From positions 48,863 through 112,862 of the forward strand of contig CAZUHV010000002.1 of NCBI GenBank assembly GCA_964620965.1: a stretch of DNA of 64,000 nucleotides, in the 5' to 3' direction. This document shows positions 6,431 to 59,360 of this stretch, piece by piece. This DNA comes from an uncultured Pseudomonadales bacterium. GTDB taxonomy: Bacteria > Patescibacteriota > Microgenomatia > UBA1400 > PJMF01. Position 1 is the stretch's first letter. The number at the start of each line of letters is the position of its first letter. The notes beneath the pieces are model-generated. The model did not search any database, was not told where the DNA came from, and saw only the letters and a list, made by a program, of their open reading frames with translations. The translations under genes and the position numbers were made by a program.

Positions 6431-7312
6431 ATGGCAAAAACAAAGCACCCCGATTTAGAAATTATTATTGTTAACTATAACAGTCAATTCTGGCTCAAGA
6501 AAACACTCTCTACATTAAAAGAGTTCTACTTAGACAAAACAAAGAAGTTTGTTGTTACAACTGTGGTTGATAATGCCTCAGAGGATGACTCTCTTAAAAT
6601 GATTGGAAGGGAGTTTCGTTGGGTTAACGTTATAAAACTGAAAGAAAATTTTGGCTTTGCTGTGGCAAATAACGCAGCACTTAGAGAAACAAAAGCAAAG
6701 TATGTTATGTTACTTAATTCTGATGTTGAGTTTACAGAAAAATCAAACCTTGATATTTTACTTCGGTTTTTAGATGATAAACCAAAAGTTGGTGTTATTA
6801 CTCCTAGAATTGAGTTTACTAACGGAGAAATAGACCCTGCGTGTCATAGGGGAGAACCAACAATTTGGGCCTCATTTACATACATGAGTGGACTAGAAAA
6901 TCTCTTGCCAACTAGTAAATGGTTTGCTGGGTATCATCAAACATATAAAAATTTCAGAAATATTCATACTATCGATGCATGTTCTGGTGCTGCAATGATA
7001 GTTCGAGGAGAACTTTTGGAAGACGTTGGACTTTTAGATGAACGCTTTTTTATGTATGCAGAAGATCTTGATTGGTGTAAAAGATTTCGAGAAGCTGGTA
7101 ATTTAGTTGTATATAACCCAGAAGTAATAGTCATCCACCACAAATATAAATCTGGCATTAAAAATACCTCTCAATCAATAGCAAGAAAAACTCGTAAGCA
7201 TTTTTACGACACCATGCTACAATACTATGACAAACACTACTTGGAAAGTTATCCAAGATTTGTTAGAAACATTATTAAGTACATTTTAGTAATAAAAAAA
7301 GGAGCACTATGA
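6431..7312 (+). CDS. glycosyltransferase family 2
   Basis: EIIIVNYNS...VVDNASEDDS and an NSD motif. GT2 fold. Confidence 0.75.
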   Translation: MAKTKHPDLEIIIVNYNSQFWLKKTLSTLKEFYLDKTKKFVVTTVVDNASEDDSLKMIGREFRWVNVIKLKENFGFAVANNAALRETKAKYVMLLNSDVEFTEKSNLDILLRFLDDKPKVGVITPRIEFTNGEIDPACHRGEPTIWASFTYMSGLENLLPTSKWFAGYHQTYKNFRNIHTIDACSGAAMIVRGELLEDVGLLDERFFMYAEDLDWCKRFREAGNLVVYNPEVIVIHHKYKSGIKNTSQSIARKTRKHFYDTMLQYYDKHYLESYPRFVRNIIKYILVIKKGAL

Positions 7313-7791
7313 ACTACCTTACTGAATTTAAAATTCAGCAACTTCGTACAAAAAATTTAACTGCTGCAGTTGAAACAGTAGCTATAACAATGGGAGCTGT
7401 AATGATCAACATGTTGGTCCCACAACTCTTACTTAAATATGTCTACACTGATCCAACAGCATTTGGTTTAGAAGCACCTGCAGTTTTCACATACCTTCCT
7501 TTAGTAACATATGCAGTTGCGCTTGGTTACTTCTTCTATGCAATGGTTGGAAACTTTGTTAGATGTAGAAAAGCAAACGCTTTAGAACAAGAATTTATTC
7601 TTACTGGCGGTTCTTGTGGTGACGGTTGTTGTGGAGATGGCTGTTGTTCTACTGAATCTCAAGATGAAGAAATCAGCGAAGATGAGTTAAAAGAACTCGA
7701 AAGAATCGTTGACGAAGCATTAAAACCATCAAAAAAATCAACAAAAGCTACTGCTAAAAAAACAGCAAAGAAGAAGACAGCTAAGAAATAA
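7309..7791 (+). CDS. small membrane protein with a Cys-rich GDGCC repeat and a lysine-rich C-terminal tail
   Basis: 160-aa ORF. ATGA overlap with the upstream GT2 gene, i.e. translational coupling. Two hydrophobic helices, then GGSCGDGCCGDGCC, an acidic segment and KKSTKATAKKTAKKKTAKK. A hairpin plus T-run terminator follows. Confidence 0.5.
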   Translation: MNYLTEFKIQQLRTKNLTAAVETVAITMGAVMINMLVPQLLLKYVYTDPTAFGLEAPAVFTYLPLVTYAVALGYFFYAMVGNFVRCRKANALEQEFILTGGSCGDGCCGDGCCSTESQDEEISEDELKELERIVDEALKPSKKSTKATAKKTAKKKTAKK

Positions 7792-7814: not shown

Positions 7815-7852
7815 TAAAAAACCGCCAGTTTTTAAAGCTGACGGTTTTTTTT
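7815..7852. terminator. bidirectional intrinsic terminator between convergent genes
   Basis: A-run, then CCGCCAG...CTGACGG hairpin (1 mismatch), then T8. It sits between the + gene ending at 7791 and the - gene ending at 7949. Confidence 0.55.
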
Positions 7853-7948
7853 GCTCATTTTACAATTTGTTGTGGATTTGGGCAGGCATTCTGCGTAAGC
7901 CACAACTCATATTTTAACAATTAAACGATTTAATTTTGATTCATTTTT

Positions 7949-10900
7949 TTATTGGCAACTACTCGGATAGACATAAATGTTATTCGAGTGTGCATAGTAG
8001 GGCGTATTCAGCGCCGTTACCCATATTTCGTACTGAAGACTACAATCCAAACCAGTCACTGTGTACGTTTCAGTATTTGCAGGCAAGTACACAAAGAAAG
8101 TATCGGCAGATGTAGTGGCTTTGTAGCCGAGCCGATACTCTAGTTCAATGTTTGAATTATCATTCCACACTACCGAAATAGAGGTTGTCGTTGAGGAAGT
8201 CTTATGAAGATCTGTTGGGGCATTAGGGGTTGGACCTTCAACTGGATCACAGGCGTTTGTGTTTGCACTTATAAAGTTGCTTTCCGAGTAATACAGATTG
8301 CCGTTATCCCAGTTTATCACGCGCACTACAAAATTGTATTGTGTTTCGCACTCTAAACCAGAAACTGTGTAGCTCTCAGTATTCGCAGCAACTGTGGGAT
8401 TAAACCATTCCCCACCATCTGCTTGATACCAGACTTCAAAATTATCCTCAATCGTGGAGTTATCGTCCCACGCGACGGTAATTGAGTTTTGGCCTACAGT
8501 TGTTACATGAAGGCCTGAGGGAGCGTTGGGAGTTGGGCCTTCTTGAGGAGGCGGCGAGCCACCAGGTTTTACTACCAAAGGGAGATATATTGCACCATCC
8601 CAAACAGGTTCAACATAACAACTTGGTGTAGAAACCGCAACCAAGTTTGGTGTAGCAGAGTCACCCCAGTTGTTGAAGGCCTTCACCAAGTAATGATAGT
8701 CTGTTCCACAAGGAAGGTCATTGAAAGTCCATGACGTTGTATAGCGGCTATTGATAGTCGCAACCAACGCATAGAAATCATCATCCACATGTTCGTAGAT
8801 ATGATACCCTTGCGTAGAACTATCTGTGCTTTGTTCCCACTCCACAGTGATTGACTGGTTGTCATTTTCCTCTGCCGACATGACAAATTGGCCTAAGGCC
8901 AAGTTGCCATTGTTATTTGAATACCCCCATGCGCTTTGTGGCATTTCGGGGGAGCCATCACAGTATTCGTTGTCGAACACTGCGAATGAGGAAATAACAG
9001 AATCGCCTTCGCCAACACTGATTGAAACACCGTTATTCAAGGCGTCATTTCTAAAGGTTGTCATGCTTGTTGAAAAACATTTATCTCCACCCTGATAGTT
9101 AGCGTGTTCCCAAACCTTAATTGACCAACCTGCCTTAATCCGCAAACTGGAAATTTGATCATTCCAGTTTGTTCCACACCAATTTGTTAAATCAGCGGCA
9201 GATGTTGGACCATGTCCACCGCAATTGGAAAACTGCACGCCTTCGTCTTGGTAGACAATGTAGTCATGAGTCTCAATAAGGGGATCTTGGCAAAGATCAA
9301 AGTTAAACACTTCTAGACCAACAATCTGATACGGCCAGCCAGCCGCATTTAGATTAGGCACGCTGCGATTAAAGCAGAATGCCTGATTGACGCTTTGCCG
9401 TTTGTCAATTCGGTACAAAACTACTGAGCTACCCGTTTTCAAACTCAGACTACCAGCATAGAAATACTGGTGGTCGTGAAAACCAGTGTAGTAGCTTGGA
9501 CCAGAGCCTTGATATCCAGTCCCGCTAAAGAATTGAACGTTAGGTGGTTGGGTTGGATTGGGTGGATCAGTAGGACAGACATCCCTGTTATACACGAAAA
9601 CTGACTGAATTTTCGTCTGCCAGTCATTGTGATCTTGTAGGTTAGGAACATTTGAGTTCCAACATTCACTCATACCCTGCATGTTGTCATCACGATAAGT
9701 GATAACCGACCAACCATTGGGGATCTGCATACTATAGCCTTCAGCATTTGGCTCGTTGTCGAGCCCTACATCAAAGGTATATAGCATCGCACCTTCATAG
9801 TTAGGGTATTGGAAGAGCTTAACAGCTCCACCACTACCAGTTTGAGGACCAGGAGGAAGAGGTTGTGTATCTGGAGAAGGCGGCGTATCAGGTGAATTTG
9901 TCGGGCAACTCCCAGCAATTATTTTTACACTCCCAACAAAATTAGCAATGCTAAAATGTGTCCCTGGGTAGAAATCTTTGTTCATATCCCACAGGTCACC
10001 AGAATAACAGGCAGACATTGTTGGAGGTGATTGTGGATTGTAAATAATCACACTATAACCTGGTTGTATGTCCAACGAATACGGGGTAAAATTACCAATA
10101 TTAATTTCTTGGCCGACTTGATTAGTCAACCAAATATTACCATTGCAATGTGTTTGGTCAAACAGACGCAAAAGCTCACTACTATGGTTGACTGATGAGT
10201 TATCTATACAATTCGAGTACGATGAAGGGTCAATGGTTCTGTAAATCCATGATTTGTAATTTGGGACATTTTGAAAACCCATTGTTTCCACATATCCACA
10301 GAAAGGAGTGCTTCCTGTAGAAATAATGGCTCCTAAAATGGTTTGACCATTTTTCACATATACAAGTGGACCACCACTGTCACCCGGACAAGTTGACCTC
10401 CCACTAATAACGGCTGCAACAAATTTATCTTGATTTTCGCTTTGAGTTAAATTATTGAAACTTATCTCAAGCAAATCATTTGATGTCTGAATCAGACCGA
10501 TATTGCCGTAACCCATTGCAACAAATTGTTCATGATTATCAATGTAAGTTGAAATATCGTCTGGCGTGCCAATTTGTATTGGTGGTCTTGAAGAAGGTCT
10601 AGATAACTTCCATAAAGCTAAATCAGTTTCCCCGGGGTTTAAATCTCCACCACTAAATGTAATTGGTTCACCATTTAGTTGAATTCTTTCAACATTTCCA
10701 TTCCAAATATGATCTCCACCAATTATGGCTGTATATACGGCATCACTACCATATGTGTAAAAGGCACCACCTGAAGTTGATCTCCAACAATGATGTGCTG
10801 TTAAAATCCAATCAGGATGAATTAAAACTCCGCCACAGAATTTATCATTTGTATAAGATTCATTTGTAGCAGTTAATTCAACCATCCAAGGATACTTACC

Positions 10901-11044
10901 GTTAGCATTTGTGCCATTATGAATTGCGCTAATCTTTTGTGTTGGATTTAAAACCAACATCAAAAATATCGAACAAAAAACTAGAAATACATGTTTAGTT
11001 TTCACTTTATTAACCTTTGTTGACAGTAAGCAATTTACTGTCAA
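7949..11044 (-). CDS. secreted trypsin-like (S1) serine protease with beta/gamma-crystallin-like repeats and three C-terminal fibronectin type III domains
   Basis: N-terminal signal peptide (KVNKVKTKH + VFLVFCSIFLMLVL). Catalytic His in LTAHHC and Ser in GDSGGPL. A Pro-rich linker, then Greek-key-like YxxxNYxG repeats, then three ~90-aa FN3-like repeats (PTPNAPSGLHVTTVGQNSITVAWDDNS... and PTPNAPTDLHKTSSTTTSISVVWNDNS...). Apparent TTG start at 11042-11044. Confidence 0.8.
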   Translation of the reverse strand: MTVNCLLSTKVNKVKTKHVFLVFCSIFLMLVLNPTQKISAIHNGTNANGKYPWMVELTATNESYTNDKFCGGVLIHPDWILTAHHCWRSTSGGAFYTYGSDAVYTAIIGGDHIWNGNVERIQLNGEPITFSGGDLNPGETDLALWKLSRPSSRPPIQIGTPDDISTYIDNHEQFVAMGYGNIGLIQTSNDLLEISFNNLTQSENQDKFVAAVISGRSTCPGDSGGPLVYVKNGQTILGAIISTGSTPFCGYVETMGFQNVPNYKSWIYRTIDPSSYSNCIDNSSVNHSSELLRLFDQTHCNGNIWLTNQVGQEINIGNFTPYSLDIQPGYSVIIYNPQSPPTMSACYSGDLWDMNKDFYPGTHFSIANFVGSVKIIAGSCPTNSPDTPPSPDTQPLPPGPQTGSGGAVKLFQYPNYEGAMLYTFDVGLDNEPNAEGYSMQIPNGWSVITYRDDNMQGMSECWNSNVPNLQDHNDWQTKIQSVFVYNRDVCPTDPPNPTQPPNVQFFSGTGYQGSGPSYYTGFHDHQYFYAGSLSLKTGSSVVLYRIDKRQSVNQAFCFNRSVPNLNAAGWPYQIVGLEVFNFDLCQDPLIETHDYIVYQDEGVQFSNCGGHGPTSAADLTNWCGTNWNDQISSLRIKAGWSIKVWEHANYQGGDKCFSTSMTTFRNDALNNGVSISVGEGDSVISSFAVFDNEYCDGSPEMPQSAWGYSNNNGNLALGQFVMSAEENDNQSITVEWEQSTDSSTQGYHIYEHVDDDFYALVATINSRYTTSWTFNDLPCGTDYHYLVKAFNNWGDSATPNLVAVSTPSCYVEPVWDGAIYLPLVVKPGGSPPPQEGPTPNAPSGLHVTTVGQNSITVAWDDNSTIEDNFEVWYQADGGEWFNPTVAANTESYTVSGLECETQYNFVVRVINWDNGNLYYSESNFISANTNACDPVEGPTPNAPTDLHKTSSTTTSISVVWNDNSNIELEYRLGYKATTSADTFFVYLPANTETYTVTGLDCSLQYEIWVTALNTPYYAHSNNIYVYPSSCQ

Positions 11045-11174
11045 CGATAAAAAAATCGTTTAATTGTTAATGAGCAATCTTTGTTTTTAAGACAAAGACC
11101 TATATTATAATAAATTTTGATATTTTAGTCAAGAAAATTGGTTAAAATACAAAAAATAATGATACAATATTTGT

Positions 11175-11786
11175 ATGGCAAAAAAATCAAAAATTAAAAA
11201 ACAACATATTAAAGTTATAATGTTACTCACTATTGTAGTAACTGTTTTAGCGATTTATTTTGGTCCTCTTTCTAAACCAAAAAAAGAGGTTTCGCAAAAA
11301 AATAGTTTTCAAAATTCAAACGCTGCACAAACATACAGTGGTACATATTTTTCTCTTAAGACTCCAGATAATTAGTATTTTGGTTCAGACATAAACGATG
11401 ACTATGAATGGATTAGAATATCTAGACAACCAGAAAAAAACAATGACAATATTGATGTGTCTAACATAGAAATTGTAGCAAGAAAAATACAAAATAATGA
11501 AACAATTAGCTCAAGAATTTCAGAATTGAACAGGGCAAAAAAAGAATATGAAGTAAATAAATCAGGGTCACTTGAAGATATTGAAAAAATTGAATTCAAA
11601 GGTCCAGAAGCCGTCAGTTATGTAATTCATATTAATATACCAAACGAAGAAATATCTGAAACAAGATCAGTTTCTGTCATTAAAAATGATATCATTTATT
11701 TATTGCGTTTAATATCATACGGAGAAAGTTTAGATCAATTATCAGAAGTTATAACTGAAAATTCTCTAATTTTCGACAATGTATGA
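11175..11786 (+). pseudogene. member of the MAKKS-anchored paralog family, interrupted by a single in-frame TAG (11373-11375)
   Basis: The six-frame ORFs 11175-11375 and 11457-11786 are in the same frame and separated only by one TAG. The N-terminus MAKKSKIKKQHIKVIMLLTIVVTVLAIYF matches the intact paralogs at 13164 and 13955. The C-terminal part (IIYLLRLISYGESLDQLSEVI) aligns with the paralog C-terminus (IVYEIEWILTAKNMNNLENII). Confidence 0.5.
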
Positions 11787-11806
11787 GACTCATTCCAGTT
11801 TACTAA

Positions 11807-12004
11807 ATGATAAAAAAAAATTTATTAGTAATTATTTTTATTGCAATATTAGTTAGTACTTTAGCAATTTTTGTTAAACCAAAATCAGTTAAAAATGAAG
11901 TTTTGACTGATCAATCTATTATTTCAGTTAATAAAGAAAAGACATTTGCAGAATTATCAATGGAAAAAGTTACTCAGAATGAAGACCGATATTATATAAT
12001 ATAA
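11807..12004 (+). pseudogene. 5' gene fragment (65 codons) of the paralog at 13955-14647
   Basis: An 85-bp stretch (11819-11903) is identical to 13985-14069, and similarity continues for about 190 bp. The ORF stops early and has no family -10 box upstream. Confidence 0.45.
11819..11903. repeat. 85-bp perfect direct repeat (copy 1) of 13985-14069
   Basis: Base-by-base comparison of the N-terminal coding sequence (aatttattagtaattatttttattgcaatattagttagtactttagcaatttttgttaaaccaaaatcagttaaaaatgaagttt). Confidence 0.8.
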
Positions 12005-12055
12005 AGACAATCATATCAAGTGAATAAGTGAATAAATGTTTTTAGTAAAGCTAAA

Positions 12056-12556
12056 TTATTTTTTTTTAGAAAGATAACTTTTTGTAAAGATAAAAGTAGC
12101 AATAAATAATATGATAGTATGTAGAACTACAACAGTAAAATTATAATCTGAAAAACTATACTTGGTTAAAAAATGAAAAGTATTCAAATTCTTAGGAGTT
12201 GACGTGAAATAAGACAAAATAGAAATAAATAAAGCAGCAGTGAACAATTTGTAAAAATTTTGTTCTATGAATTTTAATTTTAAAAGAATATTAAAAAATC
12301 CAAAAACTAATACCAACTGAAGAAGTACAACAAGATAAATATTTAAAGTGTCTGAATAGTAATAATAGCCATAATCATATAAAAAAACCGGTTGAGTAAG
12401 ACTATAATGAAAAATAAACATTGTAAACACTCTGAATAATAGTTCATTAATTATTGAGAAAATAAATGTACTAACTAAAATTGATAAAGTATTATTTTTT
12501 TCCATATATTTATCATTGTACCAAAAATTATCATTCAAATATAGAAGATTATTCAT
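12056..12556 (-). CDS. polytopic membrane protein (4-5 TM), island paralog 1
   Basis: 166-aa ORF, strongly hydrophobic and AT-rich. Paralogous to 12628-13113, with the same length class, TM pattern and C-terminal ...FIFTKSY / ...FYFFMNKK. Confidence 0.5.
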   Translation of the reverse strand: MNNLLYLNDNFWYNDKYMEKNNTLSILVSTFIFSIINELLFRVFTMFIFHYSLTQPVFLYDYGYYYYSDTLNIYLVVLLQLVLVFGFFNILLKLKFIEQNFYKLFTAALFISILSYFTSTPKNLNTFHFLTKYSFSDYNFTVVVLHTIILFIATFIFTKSYLSKKK

Positions 12557-12627
12557 TCAATAGCAACTTTTAACCATTCGATAAAAAGATATTTAAATCA
12601 ATTGCAACCTAAAAGATAACGGTAATA

Positions 12628-13113
12628 TTATTTATCATTCTTTTTATTCATAAAAAAATAAAAAGCGAAAAATATTATTAAGACATGAACAACTATTACA
12701 AAGTATGTGATAAAAAATGGTGCAAAGCCAAAAAACAATGTCTCAAAAAAATTTATTTTATAATACGGAGTTGCTGTACCATAAGAAATTATTGAAAGAA
12801 TTGTTGATGCAATGAATATTTGATAGATTTCCCCTTTTTGTTTTATGATTTTTACCAAAATTAAAAAAACAATTATGAAAAATACAAATTGAATAAATAT
12901 AAAGATTGAAAATGGAACATTCGCAAGATTAAAATATAAACGACCATAAAGGCTCTGTGAATAAAAACCAATATCAGGAATTAATGATTCGTAATAATTG
13001 GCAGCATAATAATTCGCAACAACGCGTAAATAATATTCATTCAATAATGATATAAAAAAAGCAATTAGTGCTAAAAAAAATTTTTTAACAAAAGTAAAAT
13101 CATTAGTTTTCAT
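12628..13113 (-). CDS. polytopic membrane protein (4-5 TM), island paralog 2
   Basis: 161-aa ORF. Paralog of 12056-12556. Divergent from the + strand family member at 13164. Confidence 0.5.
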   Translation of the reverse strand: MKTNDFTFVKKFFLALIAFFISLLNEYYLRVVANYYAANYYESLIPDIGFYSQSLYGRLYFNLANVPFSIFIFIQFVFFIIVFLILVKIIKQKGEIYQIFIASTILSIISYGTATPYYKINFFETLFFGFAPFFITYFVIVVHVLIIFFAFYFFMNKKNDK

Positions 13114-13163
13114 ACATGAATAATTATATCAATATCTAACTGAATGAATGTTATAATTTTTAT

Positions 13164-13904
13164 ATGGCAAAGAAATCAATAATTAAAAAACAACATATAA
13201 ATATTATTGTTGTCTTAGCAGTAATACTCACAGGTATAACAATATTTGGAAAGCAATACTTCTCAAAACTGCAATACAATACAAGATTCCATACTTGTAT
13301 TAATCAAGATGGCTCTACTTTTGAAACCACTGAACCATGTGAAAACTATTTACAAAAGGAAGAAACTTCAAATACTACCGTTAGCTTAGATCCTGATAAA
13401 CCAGATTTAGTTACCTTTCAAGCAGGATATTTTGCTGTAAAATATCCAAATAATTGGAATTATGTTGGTCATGATGGTGGTTTAGGAAATTTATTTGAAT
13501 ATCTACAAATAACTGATGTACAAGTCGAAGAAATGTATGATGGAAATCCAAATCTTCCGGCAATAATTTCCATTCAAGCAAATAAAAAAGGATTTTTCGG
13601 TGATTTTATTGGGAATGCTCATTATACGGGAAAATCTCTTGATGAATATATCAAAGATACTCTAAAAGAATTGGGGAACAATTACAAATCAAGAAGAGTT
13701 GATGGAACATCAGGCTGGTTAGTTGAAGAACCATCAGCTGATTGTTGTAAAATAAATATGTATCAATTAGTAATACATAATGACATATTCTATAATATTT
13801 CTTTAAATGTAAATGCATCAAATATGAAGGAGCTAGACGAAAAATCAAAAAAATATAGAAATGATTTTGATACAGTTCTTGATAACTTTAAATTTAATGA
13901 CTAG
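13164..13904 (+). CDS. signal-anchored (type II) surface protein, MAKKS family, with a variable C-terminal domain containing a CC pair
   Basis: MAKKSIIKKQHI + one TM helix, then a 200-aa hydrophilic domain. TATAAT sits 6 nt upstream of the ATG. Confidence 0.6.
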   Translation: MAKKSIIKKQHINIIVVLAVILTGITIFGKQYFSKLQYNTRFHTCINQDGSTFETTEPCENYLQKEETSNTTVSLDPDKPDLVTFQAGYFAVKYPNNWNYVGHDGGLGNLFEYLQITDVQVEEMYDGNPNLPAIISIQANKKGFFGDFIGNAHYTGKSLDEYIKDTLKELGNNYKSRRVDGTSGWLVEEPSADCCKINMYQLVIHNDIFYNISLNVNASNMKELDEKSKKYRNDFDTVLDNFKFND

Positions 13905-13954
13905 AGGTTAAGCATTTAATGAATTTATGACTTATTCTTGGTTACAATAGCTAT

Positions 13955-14647
13955 ATGGCAAAAAAATCAATAATGAAAAAACAAAATTTATTAGTAATTA
14001 TTTTTATTGCAATATTAGTTAGTACTTTAGCAATTTTTGTTAAACCAAAATCAGTTAAAAATGAAGTTTCGGTTGATCACACTACTGTTTCAGTTGATAA
14101 AGGAAAGACTTATGCAGAATTATCAATGGAAAAAGTTTCTCAGAATAAAGACGGAACTAGTACATATAATGGAGATTATTTTTCAACAACTTATCCAGAA
14201 AATTGGTATAAATGGTTTTTTGGTAGGGGAGTAAGTCTTGAAAACTTCCAAGTAAATTCGTTTTCTGAGGATAAAGTAGATGATATCTATGCAGAAGGTT
14301 CTTTCATAACTATAAATGTTGAAACTAAGGATTATAGACCCGTTTCAACATTAGAGGGGAAAATTGATTCTATAGAAGAATTAAAGAAGAATGCAGGTGA
14401 AAATACTAATGTAACATATAAAGTTGGACAATTTAAGTCAACACAAGCGGTTTACTCAGAAATTAAATCAAGTTCACATGGTTCAAAAAATCCAAGTTAT
14501 ATTAACACAATTTGGTTAATTAAAAGTGATATTGTCTATGAAATTGAATGGATATTAACTGCAAAAAACATGAACAATCTAGAAAATATAATATCTAGAG
14601 ATAAACTTGTTCATAATCAAATTGTTAATTCATTTGAATTTAAGTAG
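13955..14647 (+). CDS. signal-anchored (type II) surface protein, MAKKS family, with a divergent C-terminal domain
   Basis: MAKKSIMKKQNLLVIIFIAILVSTLAIFV TM anchor. TACAAT sits 6 nt upstream of the ATG. The C-terminal domain is unrelated in sequence to that of 13164. Confidence 0.6.
   Translation: MAKKSIMKKQNLLVIIFIAILVSTLAIFVKPKSVKNEVSVDHTTVSVDKGKTYAELSMEKVSQNKDGTSTYNGDYFSTTYPENWYKWFFGRGVSLENFQVNSFSEDKVDDIYAEGSFITINVETKDYRPVSTLEGKIDSIEELKKNAGENTNVTYKVGQFKSTQAVYSEIKSSSHGSKNPSYINTIWLIKSDIVYEIEWILTAKNMNNLENIISRDKLVHNQIVNSFEFK
13985..14069. repeat. 85-bp perfect direct repeat (copy 2) of 11819-11903
   Basis: See copy 1 at 11819-11903. Confidence 0.8.
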
Positions 14648-14687
14648 AGAGTCGAACATCAATTCCAATTTTGCTATAATCAGAAGT

Positions 14688-15041
14688 ATGAATATTTTGG
14701 ATTCAATTACATTTTTTTATCATCTTTATGGAGTACTTGTTTTGCTTTTTCTCTTCATATTTTTTGTTGTTTTAACATTTGTAGGGCTCAAGACAAAAAG
14801 AAGAGTAATATTTTTCCCTTCATTATTGATCGTAGTTATTTCCTTACTAATTATGTTTTTTGGTAGAAAATGTTGGTCGAGTGGGTGGGGTGGATTGTCA
14901 GGAATTGGTGATCAATGTACATGTAATGGCTTAGTTGTTAAATTTTATGTACCAAGCCCATTGTTATCGTATCAGTACACATGTTTTGGTATTGTTGAGG
15001 AGCCCGCTGAAATTTTTTCCTCAAGTAAATTTTACAGATAA
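14688..15041 (+). CDS. small two-TM membrane protein with a Cys-containing C-terminal tail
   Basis: ORF from the ATG at 14688 (MNILDS...). Extended -10 TGcTATAAT at 14672-14680, 7 nt upstream. Two hydrophobic helices, then CWSSGWGGLSGIGDQCTCNG...YTCFG. Confidence 0.35.
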   Translation: MNILDSITFFYHLYGVLVLLFLFIFFVVLTFVGLKTKRRVIFFPSLLIVVISLLIMFFGRKCWSSGWGGLSGIGDQCTCNGLVVKFYVPSPLLSYQYTCFGIVEEPAEIFSSSKFYR

Positions 15042-15076
15042 ACAAAGTATTACTTTATCTATAGTATAATGCATAT

Positions 15077-16174
15077 ATGAGAATCGGAATTGATGCTCGG
15101 TTATCAGGCGCTCAACACGCAGGAATCGGCAGATATACACAAAACTTAATTTTAGAATTGCTTAAAAAAAACAAAACCACAACGTATGTTTTGTTTTTCT
15201 ACACTCAAGAACAAGCAGAAGCAGTTTTGGGAACAGAAATTTCAAATAAAAAAGTTGAAATTGTTATTACACCCGTTCGTCATTACACAGTGACAGAACA
15301 ACTCAAGCTTCCAAAACTTTTCAAAGCACAAAAATTAGACTTACTGCATGTACCTCACTTTAATATTCCCATTTTTTATAAAGGTAAATTAATCATTACA
15401 ATTCACGACCTTTTATGGCACGAATACAAGGGTGGTTCTGTTACTACATTAAACCCGGTTATGTATTTCTTAAAATACTTGTTCTATAGATTAGTAACTA
15501 GAATTGCAGTTTACAAAGCAGAAAAAATTATTGTGCCTGCAGAAACTATTAAAAATACTGTTACTAAATTCTATCCAAAAACAGAAGAAAAAATTACAGT
15601 GACAAAAGAAGGTGCATATATTGTTGATCCCAAAAAACTTAAAAACTTACCTCAACTTAAAAACACACTTTTGTATGTTGGCTCACTCTATCCACATAAA
15701 AACTTAAAACTTATTTTGCAAGCATTACCATCACTCCCAAAATATAAACTTTTGATTGCCGGTTCAAGAAACGTCTTTCAAGATAAAGTGAGAGAGTATG
15801 TAAAATATAAACAAATTGAAGAACAAGTAGAATTTCTTGGATATGTCCCAGATGAAGACCTTGCAAAACTTTACCAACAAGTCACTGCACTTGTACAGCC
15901 ATCATTTTCCGAAGGATTTGGCCTAACTGGAGTAGAAGCAATGTCCTTTGGAACTTCTGTACTAGCTTCAGATATTCCTATTTTTAAAGAAATTTACCAA
16001 GATGTAGCCTTTTATTTCAGCCCTCATTCTATTGCATCTTTTATTCAAGCAGTTCATGCCCTTGAACAAAAATCAGATGCACAAAATAAAGAAGGGTTGC
16101 AACTTGCGAAAAACTATTCTTGGGAAAAAATGGCAGAGCAAACAATAGAGTTATATAAAGAAATTTTAAAATAA
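15077..16174 (+). CDS. glycosyltransferase family 4
   Basis: C-terminal EGFGLTGVEAMSFGTSVLASDIPIFKE motif, the GT4 signature. Confidence 0.75.
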   Translation: MRIGIDARLSGAQHAGIGRYTQNLILELLKKNKTTTYVLFFYTQEQAEAVLGTEISNKKVEIVITPVRHYTVTEQLKLPKLFKAQKLDLLHVPHFNIPIFYKGKLIITIHDLLWHEYKGGSVTTLNPVMYFLKYLFYRLVTRIAVYKAEKIIVPAETIKNTVTKFYPKTEEKITVTKEGAYIVDPKKLKNLPQLKNTLLYVGSLYPHKNLKLILQALPSLPKYKLLIAGSRNVFQDKVREYVKYKQIEEQVEFLGYVPDEDLAKLYQQVTALVQPSFSEGFGLTGVEAMSFGTSVLASDIPIFKEIYQDVAFYFSPHSIASFIQAVHALEQKSDAQNKEGLQLAKNYSWEKMAEQTIELYKEILK

Positions 16175-31395: not shown

Positions 31396-31446
31396 AAATT
31401 TGAAAATAGACTTTAACTTACCAAACAAGTATATATAATAGGATAT

Positions 31447-32679
31447 ATGTATAAACAAATACTCTACAAATTAAAACGCCCCTATCATTTTATAAAAACA
31501 GGAATTCTTGATGGTTTAAAGTCTGAACTGCAAACTGGTTTTCCTTCAAAACAGCTTAAAATTATCACCATTACTGGCACAGATGGAAAAACTACCTCAA
31601 CAACATTGCTGTATCATGTTTTAAAAACTGCAAAAAAAAAGGTTGGACTTCTTTCAACTGTTGCGGCATATTTGGGAACAAAAGCTGTTGATACTGGTTT
31701 TCATGTGACTTCTCCACAGCCTTCTGATCTACAAAAATTTATGAAAGAAATGGTAGATTCTGGCTATGAGTACTTAGTCCTTGAGGTCACTTCTCATGGA
31801 AGTTACCAATATAGGGATTGGGGTGTGAGACCAATTCTTTCTGGAGTTACCAATATTGCAAATGAACACCTCGACTATCATCTTAACTATGCAGAATATT
31901 TAGACGCAAAGGCAAATATTCTTAAAAAAGCACCAACAGCAGTTGTAAATGCTGATGACTATTCATATCAATTTTTAAGAAAAAAACTTTCTACAACCAA
32001 CCTAGTTACCTACTCAAAAGAAAGTGAACTCCCTAAAAAAGTGCAAAAAAGCATTGAAACTCGATTCCCAGAAAACTATAACCAAATGAATGCAAAGCTT
32101 GTATATGCTCTGAGCAAACTACTTCACATTGAAGATGCTGATTTTATAGAAGCAATTAATACATTTAAGGGAGTTCCAGGAAGGATGCAGGTTGTCCCAA
32201 ATAAAAAGAGACTCAACATTGTTGTTGATTTCGCTCATACTCCACAGGGCTTGAGGTCTGTTTTAAGATCACTGCGTGAACAAATTGATAAAAAGCAAAG
32301 CTCTGGAAAACTCATTGCCGTATTTGGATGTGCTGGACAAAGAGACACTAGAAAAAGGCCAGAAATGGGAGAAATAGCAAGTAAAATAGCAGATATAGCT
32401 GTCTTTACTGCAGAAGACCCAAGAGATGAAAATATCTGGTCTATTATTAGACAAATGAAAGAGGGCCTTACGGAAAACCATGATAAAGTAGTTTCAATAG
32501 CAGAACGAGGTGAAGCAATTGAATATGCTATTACCGAACTTGCAAAACCAGGTGATACTGTTGTAGTTCTTGGAAAAGGTCACGAAAAAAGCATGTGTTA
32601 TTTTGGGGTAGAATACCCATGGAATGACGTTGAAGCTATCGAAAAAATCTTAGATGGAAAACATCCAAGAGTAAAATAG
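31447..32679 (+). CDS. murE: Mur ligase, probably UDP-MurNAc-L-Ala-D-Glu--diamino acid ligase MurE with a shortened N-terminal domain
   Basis: ITGTDGKTTST P-loop, DFAHTPQ (compare MurE DYAHTPDAL) and GKGHE motif. Position after ftsI. Only 410 aa. Confidence 0.6.
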   Translation: MYKQILYKLKRPYHFIKTGILDGLKSELQTGFPSKQLKIITITGTDGKTTSTTLLYHVLKTAKKKVGLLSTVAAYLGTKAVDTGFHVTSPQPSDLQKFMKEMVDSGYEYLVLEVTSHGSYQYRDWGVRPILSGVTNIANEHLDYHLNYAEYLDAKANILKKAPTAVVNADDYSYQFLRKKLSTTNLVTYSKESELPKKVQKSIETRFPENYNQMNAKLVYALSKLLHIEDADFIEAINTFKGVPGRMQVVPNKKRLNIVVDFAHTPQGLRSVLRSLREQIDKKQSSGKLIAVFGCAGQRDTRKRPEMGEIASKIADIAVFTAEDPRDENIWSIIRQMKEGLTENHDKVVSIAERGEAIEYAITELAKPGDTVVVLGKGHEKSMCYFGVEYPWNDVEAIEKILDGKHPRVK

Positions 32680-57431: not shown

Positions 57432-58174
57432 TGCCAATCAAAAATACAACTACCATAATTCTAACAAATCGTAATGACCAACGATTTCTTAATGCTTTGC
57501 AATCTGCGCAAATTACAGCATCCTGCATAGTTATAGACAATAATAGCCAAAATGAATGGGAAAAGTTAAGAAAAGAATTTAATTTTAAACTCATAAAGTA
57601 TCCTGAAAAAATAGCTGATTTTTCCAAAATAAAAAATACTGCTCTGGAAGAAGTAAAAACAGAATGGGTATTATTTTTAGATAGCGATGAGGTACTCTCT
57701 AAAAATGCTGAAGAATGTATTGAAAATGTAGTACAACAAAATCTTTTTGATGCAGTTAGCATAAAAAGGGTAGATTATTTTTTAGGTAAACCATTGTTAT
57801 ATGGAGAGGCTGGCTCAATGCCACTGATTCGATTATTTAAAACTAGCAAAGGAAAATTCAGAAGAAATATTCATGAAGTTGTTGAAACACAAGGTAAAAT
57901 TGGAGAAGCTGATTTTCAAATTTTACATTTTTCACATGAGTCAATCAAAAGTTTCCTAGAAAAAATAACTCTTTATTCACAAATTGAATCAAAAAATAAA
58001 AAAATATCAAAAAATGAAACAATTTTTCAAATGATTTTTTTTCCAATCGGAAAATTTATTTTAAATTATTTTTTGAAATTTGGATTTTTAGATGGATTTA
58101 GAGGACTAATATACGCAATAATTATGAGCTTGCACTCGTTTTTTGTTCGAATTTTTTATTATGAAAACCTTTAG
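57431..58174 (+). CDS. glycosyltransferase family 2
   Basis: TTIILTNRND...IVIDNNS, DSDE motif. C-terminal amphipathic/hydrophobic segment. Confidence 0.65.
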   Translation: MPIKNTTTIILTNRNDQRFLNALQSAQITASCIVIDNNSQNEWEKLRKEFNFKLIKYPEKIADFSKIKNTALEEVKTEWVLFLDSDEVLSKNAEECIENVVQQNLFDAVSIKRVDYFLGKPLLYGEAGSMPLIRLFKTSKGKFRRNIHEVVETQGKIGEADFQILHFSHESIKSFLEKITLYSQIESKNKKISKNETIFQMIFFPIGKFILNYFLKFGFLDGFRGLIYAIIMSLHSFFVRIFYYENL

Positions 58175-59360
58175 AAAAATAGCACTTTGGATTTTTGTTG
58201 CACTTTTAAGTCTAGGACAACTTCAAAGAATTGAGTTAGCAAACACCCCAACTGCAATTTATTTTCACGATGTTTTTATTATTTTTTGGATTTTTCACAT
58301 TTTTTTCACAAATCCTATAGCATTTGGCGAATATATTTTAGAATATTTTAAAAATAATAAAAAAATACAAATATTTATTTATATTACCGCTTTTTCTCTA
58401 ATTATTAATTTATTGCAAAATTTTGACAATATTTTAATTTTATATATCTGCAGATTAATAACATATGTACTATTTGGATTTTCACTAGCATTCTTAATTA
58501 AAGAAAAAAATATAGATTTGGAATATTTTAAATTTCAGATATTTTCTGTCGGATTATTCAGTTTATTTTTAGGTTTCTTACAATTCATCTTTATTAAAGA
58601 CACCAGATTTTTGGCGATTTTGGGATGGGATGATCACTATGCAAGATTAATTGGCCCATACTTTGATCCGGGATTTACCGGAATTATTTTTTTAATAACA
58701 CTTCTAGTTGGTTTAAGTAGTGAATATTTAAAAAATAAAAAATTACAACTATTTTTAATATTATTTTTTATTTGGGGAATAATATTAACATTCTCTCGAG
58801 CTAGTTACTTAGCAACTATTACAAGTTTTGCAACTTTTTTTCTTGTGAAAATAAAAAATCTCAAAAACCCAATTCTGTTTAAAAAAATTGGTGTTGGGAC
58901 ATTAGTATTTTTTCTTATGATACTACTTGCACCAAAACCATGGGGAGAAGGAGTGAATCTCTTAAGGACTTCAACTATTACTGCCAGAATTTCTGCAGTT
59001 ACACAACAAATACAAGAACTCAGCTTCAAAACAGTAGTTATTGGAAACGGGTTATTTTCTGAAAAAAATAGCCTTACTTACTCTATAAAGAATAATTCTG
59101 AAGTCAATATTCCAAGTCATTCAAGAGTCCCAGATAATATTTTCCTTAATATTTTTCTTTCAACCGGAATAGTTGGATTAATAATCTTTATTATTTTATT
59201 AAATGATTGGGGAAAAGCATTTCTTAAAAGAAATATTTATTTATTTGCAATTTTTGTTGGACTTTTAATACATACACAATTTAGCAACTCAGTCTTGCAA
59301 CCATTTGTTCTGCTACTATTTTTATCGGCACTATCTGTTCTACAAAAACCTACAAACTAA
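58143..59360 (+). CDS. O-antigen ligase/polymerase-like (Wzy) membrane protein
   Basis: About 11 TM helices. FSRASYLATI motif and a periplasmic loop. Confidence 0.5.
   Translation: MFEFFIMKTFRKIALWIFVALLSLGQLQRIELANTPTAIYFHDVFIIFWIFHIFFTNPIAFGEYILEYFKNNKKIQIFIYITAFSLIINLLQNFDNILILYICRLITYVLFGFSLAFLIKEKNIDLEYFKFQIFSVGLFSLFLGFLQFIFIKDTRFLAILGWDDHYARLIGPYFDPGFTGIIFLITLLVGLSSEYLKNKKLQLFLILFFIWGIILTFSRASYLATITSFATFFLVKIKNLKNPILFKKIGVGTLVFFLMILLAPKPWGEGVNLLRTSTITARISAVTQQIQELSFKTVVIGNGLFSEKNSLTYSIKNNSEVNIPSHSRVPDNIFLNIFLSTGIVGLIIFIILLNDWGKAFLKRNIYLFAIFVGLLIHTQFSNSVLQPFVLLLFLSALSVLQKPTN

Follow-up and report, generated by a model that had tools for sequence, protein, structure and literature searches.

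What are the AT-rich genes that start with almost the same DNA and lie beside a giant secreted peptidase gene in an uncultured patescibacterium, and what might their products do? The genes occupy positions 11,100 to 15,050 of a 64,000-nucleotide stretch of contig CAZUHV010000002.1 (assembly GCA_964620965.1; the whole stretch is called the window here), which was deposited under the name of an uncultured Pseudomonadales bacterium and is placed by GTDB in the Patescibacteriota. An earlier interpretation made from the letters alone (the sequence-only reading) had described a conserved N-terminal module joined to unrelated C-terminal domains and had compared the array with effector/immunity cassettes and phase-variable adhesins. 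Our data favour a tandem birth-and-death family of signal-anchored PsbP-like proteins that likely bind the adjacent giant peptidase or its envelope targets, and we put the probability of this at about 0.6. The features of the locus are listed in Table 1.

The array consists of paralogues A, B and C and a fragment, C'. A 30-nucleotide 5' module, ATGGCAAARAAATCAAWAATKAAAAAACAA, is present in exactly three copies in the window, at 11175, 13164 and 13955, all on the plus strand, and in none of 100 shuffled sequences. The encoded proteins all begin with MAKKSxIKKQ and continue into one hydrophobic helix (Kyte-Doolittle peaks, residues 11-32), in agreement with what had been seen before. In A, B and C, this helix neither ends in a Cys nor is closely followed by one (B has its first Cys at residue 45, which belongs to its Cys-loop). 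The lack of a lipobox suggests that the proteins are signal-anchored (uncleaved) and not lipidated.

The ectodomains of the three window copies match each other in pairwise BLASTP even when the N-terminal module is removed (E = 3e-5, 3e-7 and 3e-5), and they align from end to end, so the claim that the C-terminal domains are unrelated has to be withdrawn. In an alignment of eleven members from the window and related contigs, the shared elements are the MxKKxxIKKQ start and transmembrane (TM) helix, a YF(S)xxYPxNW strand, an IKNDIxYxIxL strand pair and a C-terminal helix ending in DxV(L)DSFEFK. The plus-strand genes are full-length paralogues of one lineage-specific type II (signal-anchor) membrane protein family. 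In each protein, the cytoplasmic N-terminus is rich in Lys (MxKKxxIKKQ), and a single TM helix and a linker that varies between members lead to an extracytoplasmic domain of about 150 amino acids.

The sequence-only reading could not name a homologous family, and Pfam PsbP_2 (PF18933; Mog1/PsbP fold) now provides one. The gathering score of this profile is 27 bits and its length is 184 positions. An intact orthologue of paralogue A, 206 amino acids long and encoded at the distant locus L057, scores above this cut-off (28.3 bits, E 2.1e-6, profile positions 7-181 of 184), and P0008, the distant orthologue of B from the same locus, matches with an E of 1.5e-3. Copy B of the window gives 13.5 bits (E 0.07, profile positions 15-184 of 184), and there is no match to copies A and C at E <= 1. 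PsbP_2 is matched by 5 of 10 family members and every other Pfam family by at most one. Additionally, a search of the Protein Data Bank sequences with the family profile returned a single match, plant PsbP, which is weak (E 1.9). The domain falls within the Mog1/PsbP-like superfamily, the alpha-beta sandwich found in PsbP, Mog1, DcrB and LpqN, and we conclude that it is a divergent PsbP_2 domain with that fold. This is a non-enzymatic binding fold, and we infer that the array proteins expose it on the outer side of the cytoplasmic membrane.

Paralogue A is broken by two in-frame stops. One is a TAG (11373-11375) exactly at the Trp of the YPxNW motif that is conserved in the other copies, and is therefore a TGG to TAG nonsense change. 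The other is a TGA (11784-11786) that lies eight codons short of the normal C-terminus of the family (...DNV-stop-DSFQFTK-stop). The TAG had been noticed before, but it is not the single stop that it was taken for. Five independent assemblies, made from five sequencing runs, contain the same broken products (66 amino acids and a following open reading frame (ORF) of 109 amino acids), showing that the TAG is no assembly error; the pseudogene is genuine, and it is fixed in that population. An alternative genetic code was considered and rejected because TAG and TGA are both used as ordinary stops among the long ORFs of the window (TAA 23, TAG 8, TGA 6).

The C' fragment begins at the equivalent of Met7, is cut off after about codon 61 and matches positions 13972-14155 over 184 nucleotides with 91% identity. 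The existence of this 65-codon fragment was described correctly, but the perfect repeat it shares with paralogue C measures 87 nucleotides (11817-11903 = 13983-14069) and not 85. Several short-read assemblies break inside this repeat: L062 to L064 end at about window position 11846, and L004 and L005 at about 14012. The copy number of the array in metagenome-assembled genomes (MAGs) may therefore be mis-assembled.

We compared four loci: the window, L001/L006 (strain SRR11524805), L002/L003 and L057. The flanks of L001/L006 are 97.5% identical in DNA to those of the window, with the GT4 glycosyltransferase 99.2% identical in protein and a synonymous divergence (dS) of 0.09. In this strain the S1-headed peptidase gene and one four-TM gene point one way, and B, D, C and the GT4 gene follow one another in the other direction. 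Paralogue D (201 amino acids) is extra, and both the A/C' remnant and the small TM ORF are missing. The single four-TM gene matches that of the window over its first ~45 codons and not over the remainder. In DNA, the B allele matches that of the window at 95%, and a more divergent patch (87-89%) lies at 13390-13590. The C allele is 85% identical in DNA and 77% in protein, with a dS of 0.375 in comparison with 0.09 in the flank, and its divergence is also patchy, positions 14373-14472 being only 64% identical. These differences bear out the suggestion that the locus is polymorphic. The ratio of non-synonymous to synonymous divergence (dN/dS) against this strain is 0.37 for B and 0.34 for C, in comparison with 0.04-0.18 in the flanks. 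These values indicate that B and C are constrained but relaxed genes that are subject to replacement by older alleles, as opposed to gene-wide positive selection.

Orthologues of B are P0004 (80% identical) and P0008 (41%). The dN/dS values of 0.34-0.37 and the 41% identity to the L057 orthologue suggest that the array genes are real genes under constraint. The pseudogene A, the truncated C-type copy and the differences in copy number and alleles between near-identical strains show that the array evolves by birth and death. The variation in copy number that the sequence-only reading expected from a comparison of genomes is thus present, but swapping of unrelated C-termini inside the array is not, as the C-termini are homologous.

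The junctions between array genes suggest how copies are gained and lost. The window spacer between B and C, the promoter and the first ~10 codons correspond to the B-D junction of L001, and thereafter the window follows the C gene of L001. The presence or absence of D is therefore explained by a crossover inside the conserved 5' module, to which at least one gain or loss can thus be mapped. Similarly, the A/C' junction of the window resembles the D-C junction of L001 minus about 30 nucleotides, which have been deleted between short AATGA repeats. The 5' module (promoter plus first ~10 codons) therefore has two roles, as the membrane-targeting end of the protein and as a substrate for unequal recombination. 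Each array gene, like several other first genes, has a TAnAAT box that ends 6-9 nucleotides short of its ATG (11160-11175, 13150-13164, 13941-13955, 15060-15077, 14672-14688 and 31430-31447, and 13113-13130 on the minus strand), and no Shine-Dalgarno sequence is present. This points to a genome in which mRNAs are often leaderless or have very short leaders, and such starts may add constraint on the first codons. No phase-variation tract was found, the A7 run in ATGGCAAAAAAATC being interrupted in copy B (GCAAAGAAATC) and in the C copy of L001 (GCAAGAAAATC), and no convincing inverted repeats flank any array segment.

The N-terminal module also occurs elsewhere, as the sequence-only reading had thought worth looking for. 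P0009, a single-copy protein of 455 amino acids, adjoins gltX in L055 (1129-2496) and L056 (500-1867). Its anchor and Cys-loop (MTKKTIIKKQH...FHNCIATDGTVFQTTEDC) are 48% identical to the B-type paralogues over residues 1-66. P0009 then continues into a different region of ~390 amino acids with no Pfam match, so that the same module is joined to another ectodomain outside the array.

The peptidase gene that faces the array encodes a secreted protein with an S1/trypsin head (LTAHHCW, DLALW and GDSGGP motifs) and scores clearly in Pfam (Trypsin 1.2e-24, fn3 6.5e-27). A candidate identity as LmuA was rejected, since the match reflects the S1 domain only. The array had been placed directly downstream of this gene; the two are in fact divergently transcribed from a shared region of ~130-170 bp, with the S1 boundary at ~11002-11044 and the first array gene at 11175. 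The S1 protein probably starts at a GTG near 11002 and not at the TTG at 11044. The S1 promoter is near consensus (TTGACT-17-TATAAT, 11132..11104, minus strand). The S1 leader is ~100 nucleotides long and contains two to three hairpins, including a palindrome with perfect 10-bp arms at ~11017-11041 (region 10995-11140, minus strand); its minimum free energy z-score is -4.07 and it has no Rfam match. The stretch upstream of S1 at 11043-11148 is 80% conserved in L006. The region between array and peptidase is 77% identical between the window and L002 over 11000-11209.

The giant protein was recovered in all four loci (window 7949-11044, minus strand; L057 4441-8373, minus strand; L002 1-1410, minus strand; L006 691-1578). 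Its N-terminal catalytic head differs on a conserved stalk: the head is S1/trypsin in the window and L006 and M23 in L057 and L002. Residues 320-1030 of the window stalk are 52% identical to the M23-headed protein of L057, and 64% in the core. The S1 heads of the window and L006 are only 47% identical although the flanks are ~97.5% identical. The GC content of the stalk is 44%, in comparison with 35% for the genome. Two high-GC contigs were all that the stalk retrieved in a metagenome scan. They share a crystallin-like repeat but hold no array family members, and were set aside as irrelevant.

In all four loci recovered (4/4), which represent two genomic contexts, the array lies head to head with the giant peptidase gene. 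In L002/L003 the M23-headed gene faces E, B and one further copy. In L057 the M23-headed gene faces A, E and B, and the genes beyond are not GT4 but HD and DUF1801 genes, suggesting that the array travels with the giant peptidase and not with the glycosyltransferase cluster. The pairing in four loci and two contexts suggests that the array proteins most likely bind the peptidase or its envelope substrates. The linkage of anchored proteins to a secreted peptidase also agrees with the earlier proposal that the locus is envelope-related. Paralogue type and head type vary together: E is found only with M23 (L002, L057), C and D only with S1 (window, L001), and A is intact with M23 (L057) and a pseudogene with S1 (window). 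B is the only type found in all four loci. This is compatible with head-specific partners, with the limit that the four loci represent only about two independent evolutionary states.

Relatives of the family are few. A word-indexed search of 5.8 billion proteins returned, for each query, the query itself and only one or two relatives, and a full HMMER scan of 1.84 billion representative proteins found three relatives of the family. None of 36 hits to the N-terminal pattern among GTDB species representatives was confirmed, a scan of JGI metagenome contigs with B-type motifs found no family member, and the family hidden Markov model found no members in 48 GT4-syntenic loci from other Patescibacteria. 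An alignment of ten members was too divergent for deriving search patterns. The genes therefore do not behave as conserved, syntenic, single-copy housekeeping genes, the possibility that would have spoken against the sequence-only reading; the family is tiny, lineage-restricted and variable, and occurs in a handful of metagenomic lineages.

The genes sit in an AT-rich island that interrupts a conserved cluster of glycosyltransferase genes. The island is absent from L007 and L008, which represent the two closest species; there the 160-amino-acid gene leads directly to the GT4 gene across a spacer of ~80 nucleotides, which identifies window positions ~7850-15060 as an island of ~7.2 kb. The alignment with L007 and L008 places the insertion point between the terminator hairpin 3' of the 160-amino-acid gene (7309-7791) and the -10 box of the GT4 gene (which starts at 15077). 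In L007 and L008 the 160-amino-acid gene is 68% identical and the GT4 glycosyltransferase 77-78%, and the best GT4 relatives at this level (77-78%) are Patescibacteria/Paceibacteria-type MAGs, in line with a Paceibacteria-like host within the Patescibacteria. The upstream gene order, at 2-7.8 kb of the window, is the same in all three (O-antigen-ligase-like, 479-amino-acid, 397-amino-acid glycosyltransferase, 293-amino-acid GT2 and 160-amino-acid genes). The island contains the giant S1 protease gene, the decayed A/C' pair, two four-TM genes, paralogues B and C, and a small two-TM Cys-rich ORF. The GC content is 25.8% in the array part (11.1-15.05 kb) and 44% in the protease stalk, in comparison with 34.6% in the rest of the window, and the region is AT-rich as had been reported. 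Absence from the syntenic site in relatives, content that differs between near-identical strains and atypical GC are the marks of a flexible (strain-variable) genomic island.

Marks of a mobile element were looked for at the island, and no integrase, flanking direct repeats, phage match or PHROGs hits were found. The nearest tRNA is 30 kb away and there is no tRNA target at the island. No credible Rfam family was found within it. The window has a second AT-rich patch (GC 25%) at 58143-59360 on the plus strand, which is the gene for a polytopic O-antigen-ligase-like membrane protein and looks ordinary.

Table 1. Features of the island and its genes in the window (positions are those of the 64,000-nucleotide stretch; TM, transmembrane)
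Feature	Position	Strand	Basis or remark
Strain-/lineage-variable genomic island, ~7.2 kb	7850..15060		Synteny with L007, L008
Giant secreted peptidase: signal peptide, S1/trypsin head, beta/gamma-crystallin-like repeats, three fn3 domains	7949..11044	-	Pfam
Paralogue A, pseudogene of a signal-anchored protein, putatively PsbP_2-type; two in-frame stops	11175..11810	+	Reading frame, alignment
C', 5' fragment of a C-type paralogue, 65 codons	11807..12004	+	Nucleotide match to paralogue C
Membrane protein 1, 166 amino acids, ~4 TM helices	12056..12556	-	Paralogue of 12628-13113; absent from the L006 contig of the related strain
Membrane protein 2, 161 amino acids, ~4 TM helices; divergent from paralogue B	12628..13113	-	
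Paralogue B, 246 amino acids: MAKKSIIKKQ, one TM helix, Cys-loop linker FHTCINQDGSTFETTEPC, putative PsbP_2-type ectodomain	13164..13904	+	
Paralogue C, 230 amino acids: MAKKSIMKKQ, one TM helix, putative PsbP_2-type ectodomain	13955..14647	+	
Small ORF, 117 amino acids, 2 TM helices, Cys-rich tail, own TATAAT box	14688..15041	+	Part of the island, absent from strain L001

The two membrane proteins encoded on the opposite strand are paralogous, as the sequence-only reading had recognised (BLASTP 3e-6, 29% identity over the full alignment, ~4 TM helices each). Neither these nor the small proteins of the island have a match in Pfam, NCBIfam, PADLOC or PHROGs. A CPBP/Abi intramembrane protease-type immunity protein was considered for the four-TM pair and rejected, as there is no match to PF02517 and the EExxxR, FxxxH and HxxxN motifs are not present. 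Four-TM genes are found only in the S1-head loci and are missing from the M23-type loci L002 and L057. They also lie on the same operon side as the S1 gene, and probably act as accessories of the S1 module, not of the array. The small ORF at 14688-15041 has no family match. The kilobase around it (14001-15000) has a strongly positive GC skew.

Taken together, the data would fit ectodomains that act as binding modules on the outer face of the cytoplasmic membrane. There they could bind the giant peptidase or its envelope substrates, and docking, chaperoning and self-protection would all be possible. On this view, the array would vary because it co-evolves with the peptidase and also with hosts or phages. 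Several observations weigh against this. None of the three window copies reaches the Pfam PsbP_2 cut-off, and the structure model of the ectodomain, made from a five-sequence alignment, is of low confidence (mean pLDDT 50, the predicted local distance difference test). The coupling to a peptidase is known from four loci representing about two independent evolutionary states, and the occurrence of B with both S1 and M23 heads means that it cannot be a head-specific partner. The known toxin adaptors of the Mog1/PsbP type (Eag/DUF1795) are cytoplasmic and the array domains extracytoplasmic. Finally, no array gene has a gene-wide dN/dS > 1, and the high dS of copy C suggests allele replacement rather than fast adaptive change. 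In a second explanation, the array proteins would be exposed, variable surface proteins that work independently of the peptidase. Phages, hosts or predators would use them as targets or receptors, and frequency-dependent selection would keep them diverse; the island would be an ordinary flexible island of the envelope, in which the peptidase gene shares a hotspot with the array. In favour of this, the island lies among glycosyltransferase and O-antigen-ligase-like genes, and the closest species lack it. Gene content differs between strains whose flanks are ~97.5% identical, and these strains hold old alleles (dS 0.375 in comparison with 0.09). Divergence within genes is patchy (87-89% identity at 13390-13590 and 64% at 14373-14472), and the array contains pseudogenes and fragments. 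In Patescibacteria, large surface proteins with fn3 domains have also been seen as candidates for host interaction (PMC13059738). However, independence from the peptidase does not explain why array and peptidase stay together in L057 among different neighbours (HD, DUF1801) or why the divergent intergenic region is conserved, and the gene-wide dN/dS is below 1. We regard this explanation as credible but rather unlikely.

If the array proteins do act on the peptidase, they might protect the cell from it. They would then be head-specific immunity or inhibitor proteins, similar to the periplasmic immunity proteins of secreted peptidoglycan hydrolases, each paralogue type counteracting one kind of head on the surface of the producing cell, with the four-TM proteins as an extra S1 immunity. 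The co-variation of paralogue type with head type in the four loci and the restriction of four-TM genes to S1 loci fit this, and the 47% identity of S1 heads between strains with ~97.5% identical flanks is the pattern expected of an arms race. However, four loci with about two independent states can owe their co-variation to shared descent, and B-type proteins are indifferent to head type. Additionally, the array genes are divergent from the peptidase gene and not downstream of it, and no known protease-inhibitor family is matched in Pfam, NCBIfam, PADLOC or PHROGs. Specific self-protection is therefore improbable. The original comparison with polymorphic effector/immunity cassettes or phase-variable adhesins, in which a conserved trafficking module carries unrelated C-terminal effectors accompanied by membrane immunity proteins, fares worse still and is hardly credible. 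It would account for the conserved 5' module, the fragments and the variation in copy number, and P0009 does join the same anchor and Cys-loop to a different ~390-amino-acid region outside the array. However, it is contradicted by the homology of the array C-termini, which have a binding fold and not a toxin fold. No immunity gene comes after each copy, as the array genes follow one another directly, and the opposite strand carries the membrane-protein genes, which both M23-type loci lack. The adhesin version fails as well: poly-A runs are not conserved across copies or strains as simple-sequence tracts, and no invertible element or flanking inverted repeats were found. Binding of the peptidase or its envelope targets by a birth-and-death family of anchored PsbP-like proteins remains the reading we prefer. 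In a more ambitious form of it, the island would be a two-part host-interaction module of episymbiotic Patescibacteria, with a head-exchanging peptidase on a crystallin/fn3 stalk, co-evolving PsbP-fold proteins as head-specific docking or immunity partners, and the 5' module as a built-in recombination site that shuffles the partner repertoire. This is speculative and, as a whole, quite unlikely.

Patescibacteria represent a large part of bacterial diversity, and attachment to other cells is thought to be their way of life. To our knowledge, the molecules at their cell-cell interface are mostly unknown. The locus offers a concrete candidate for a surface-interaction or self-protection module, having a peptidase with swappable heads, anchored binding domains with fast turnover and presence or absence at the strain level. 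It is also a detailed example of cassette gain and loss driven by a conserved 5' gene end. The wider significance is modest for now, as the family is very narrow and its function is deduced.

The closest known proteins are those of the PsbP_2 or Mog1-PsbP superfamily (PsbP, DcrB, LpqN, Mtc28 and DUF1795/Eag), with which the array domains share an alpha-beta sandwich of ~150-180 amino acids with a strand-rich core and a long C-terminal helix. DcrB is an inner-membrane lipoprotein, LpqN is lipid-binding and acts in cell-envelope biogenesis, and Mtc28 is a secreted antigen; these three, the PA0094/SciW class and the PsbP/MOG1-like proteins linked to type VI secretion system (T6SS) toxins are all non-enzymatic binding modules. 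In DcrB, LpqN and Mtc28, as in the array, the domain is extracytoplasmic and tethered at its N-terminus. DcrB and LpqN, however, are lipoproteins with a lipobox Cys, whereas the array proteins have an uncleaved signal-anchor with a conserved KKxxIKKQ, and they are very divergent from the PsbP_2 profile (<= 13.5 bits for the window copies). We know of no description of a tandem, strain-variable array beside a giant peptidase for DcrB, LpqN or PsbP, and the peptidase-plus-array module appears to be undescribed in the literature searched.

Small PsbP/MOG1-like proteins (Eag/DUF1795) encoded beside T6SS toxins have been proposed to be adaptors (Zhang et al., 2012, PMC3482391), and provide a precedent for proteins of the Mog1/PsbP fold beside secreted toxins. 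The Eag proteins act in the cytoplasm, bind the TM helices of effectors and have T6SS genes nearby, in contrast with the extracytoplasmic array domains, whose genes are divergent from the large gene and multi-copy. No secretion-system genes were seen among the genes adjoining the array (this covers the adjacent genes only, the rest of the window being without annotation). Polymorphic toxin systems have in common with this locus the swapping of domains on a conserved scaffold, but here the swapping is in the giant peptidase (S1 or M23 head) and not in the array. The variable domain is N-terminal and is a common secreted peptidase fold instead of a dedicated toxin domain, and there is neither a cognate downstream immunity gene nor any standalone cassette. 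Flexible cell-envelope islands provide the other comparison, with the cell-wall island of Haloquadratum walsbyi (PMC4535781) and the hypervariable modules built around large Ig-domain proteins of Thermococcales (PMC8416519) as examples. In the parts of these two papers drawn on here, the common features are an envelope or glycosylation cluster, a large multi-domain secreted protein with variable small neighbours, and differences between near-identical strains. The protein families and the phylum described in those parts are other ones, and in our locus the neighbours are one PsbP-like family with a recombinogenic 5' module. Both the family of PsbP-like envelope proteins and the flexible envelope island that carries it are thus of kinds already known.

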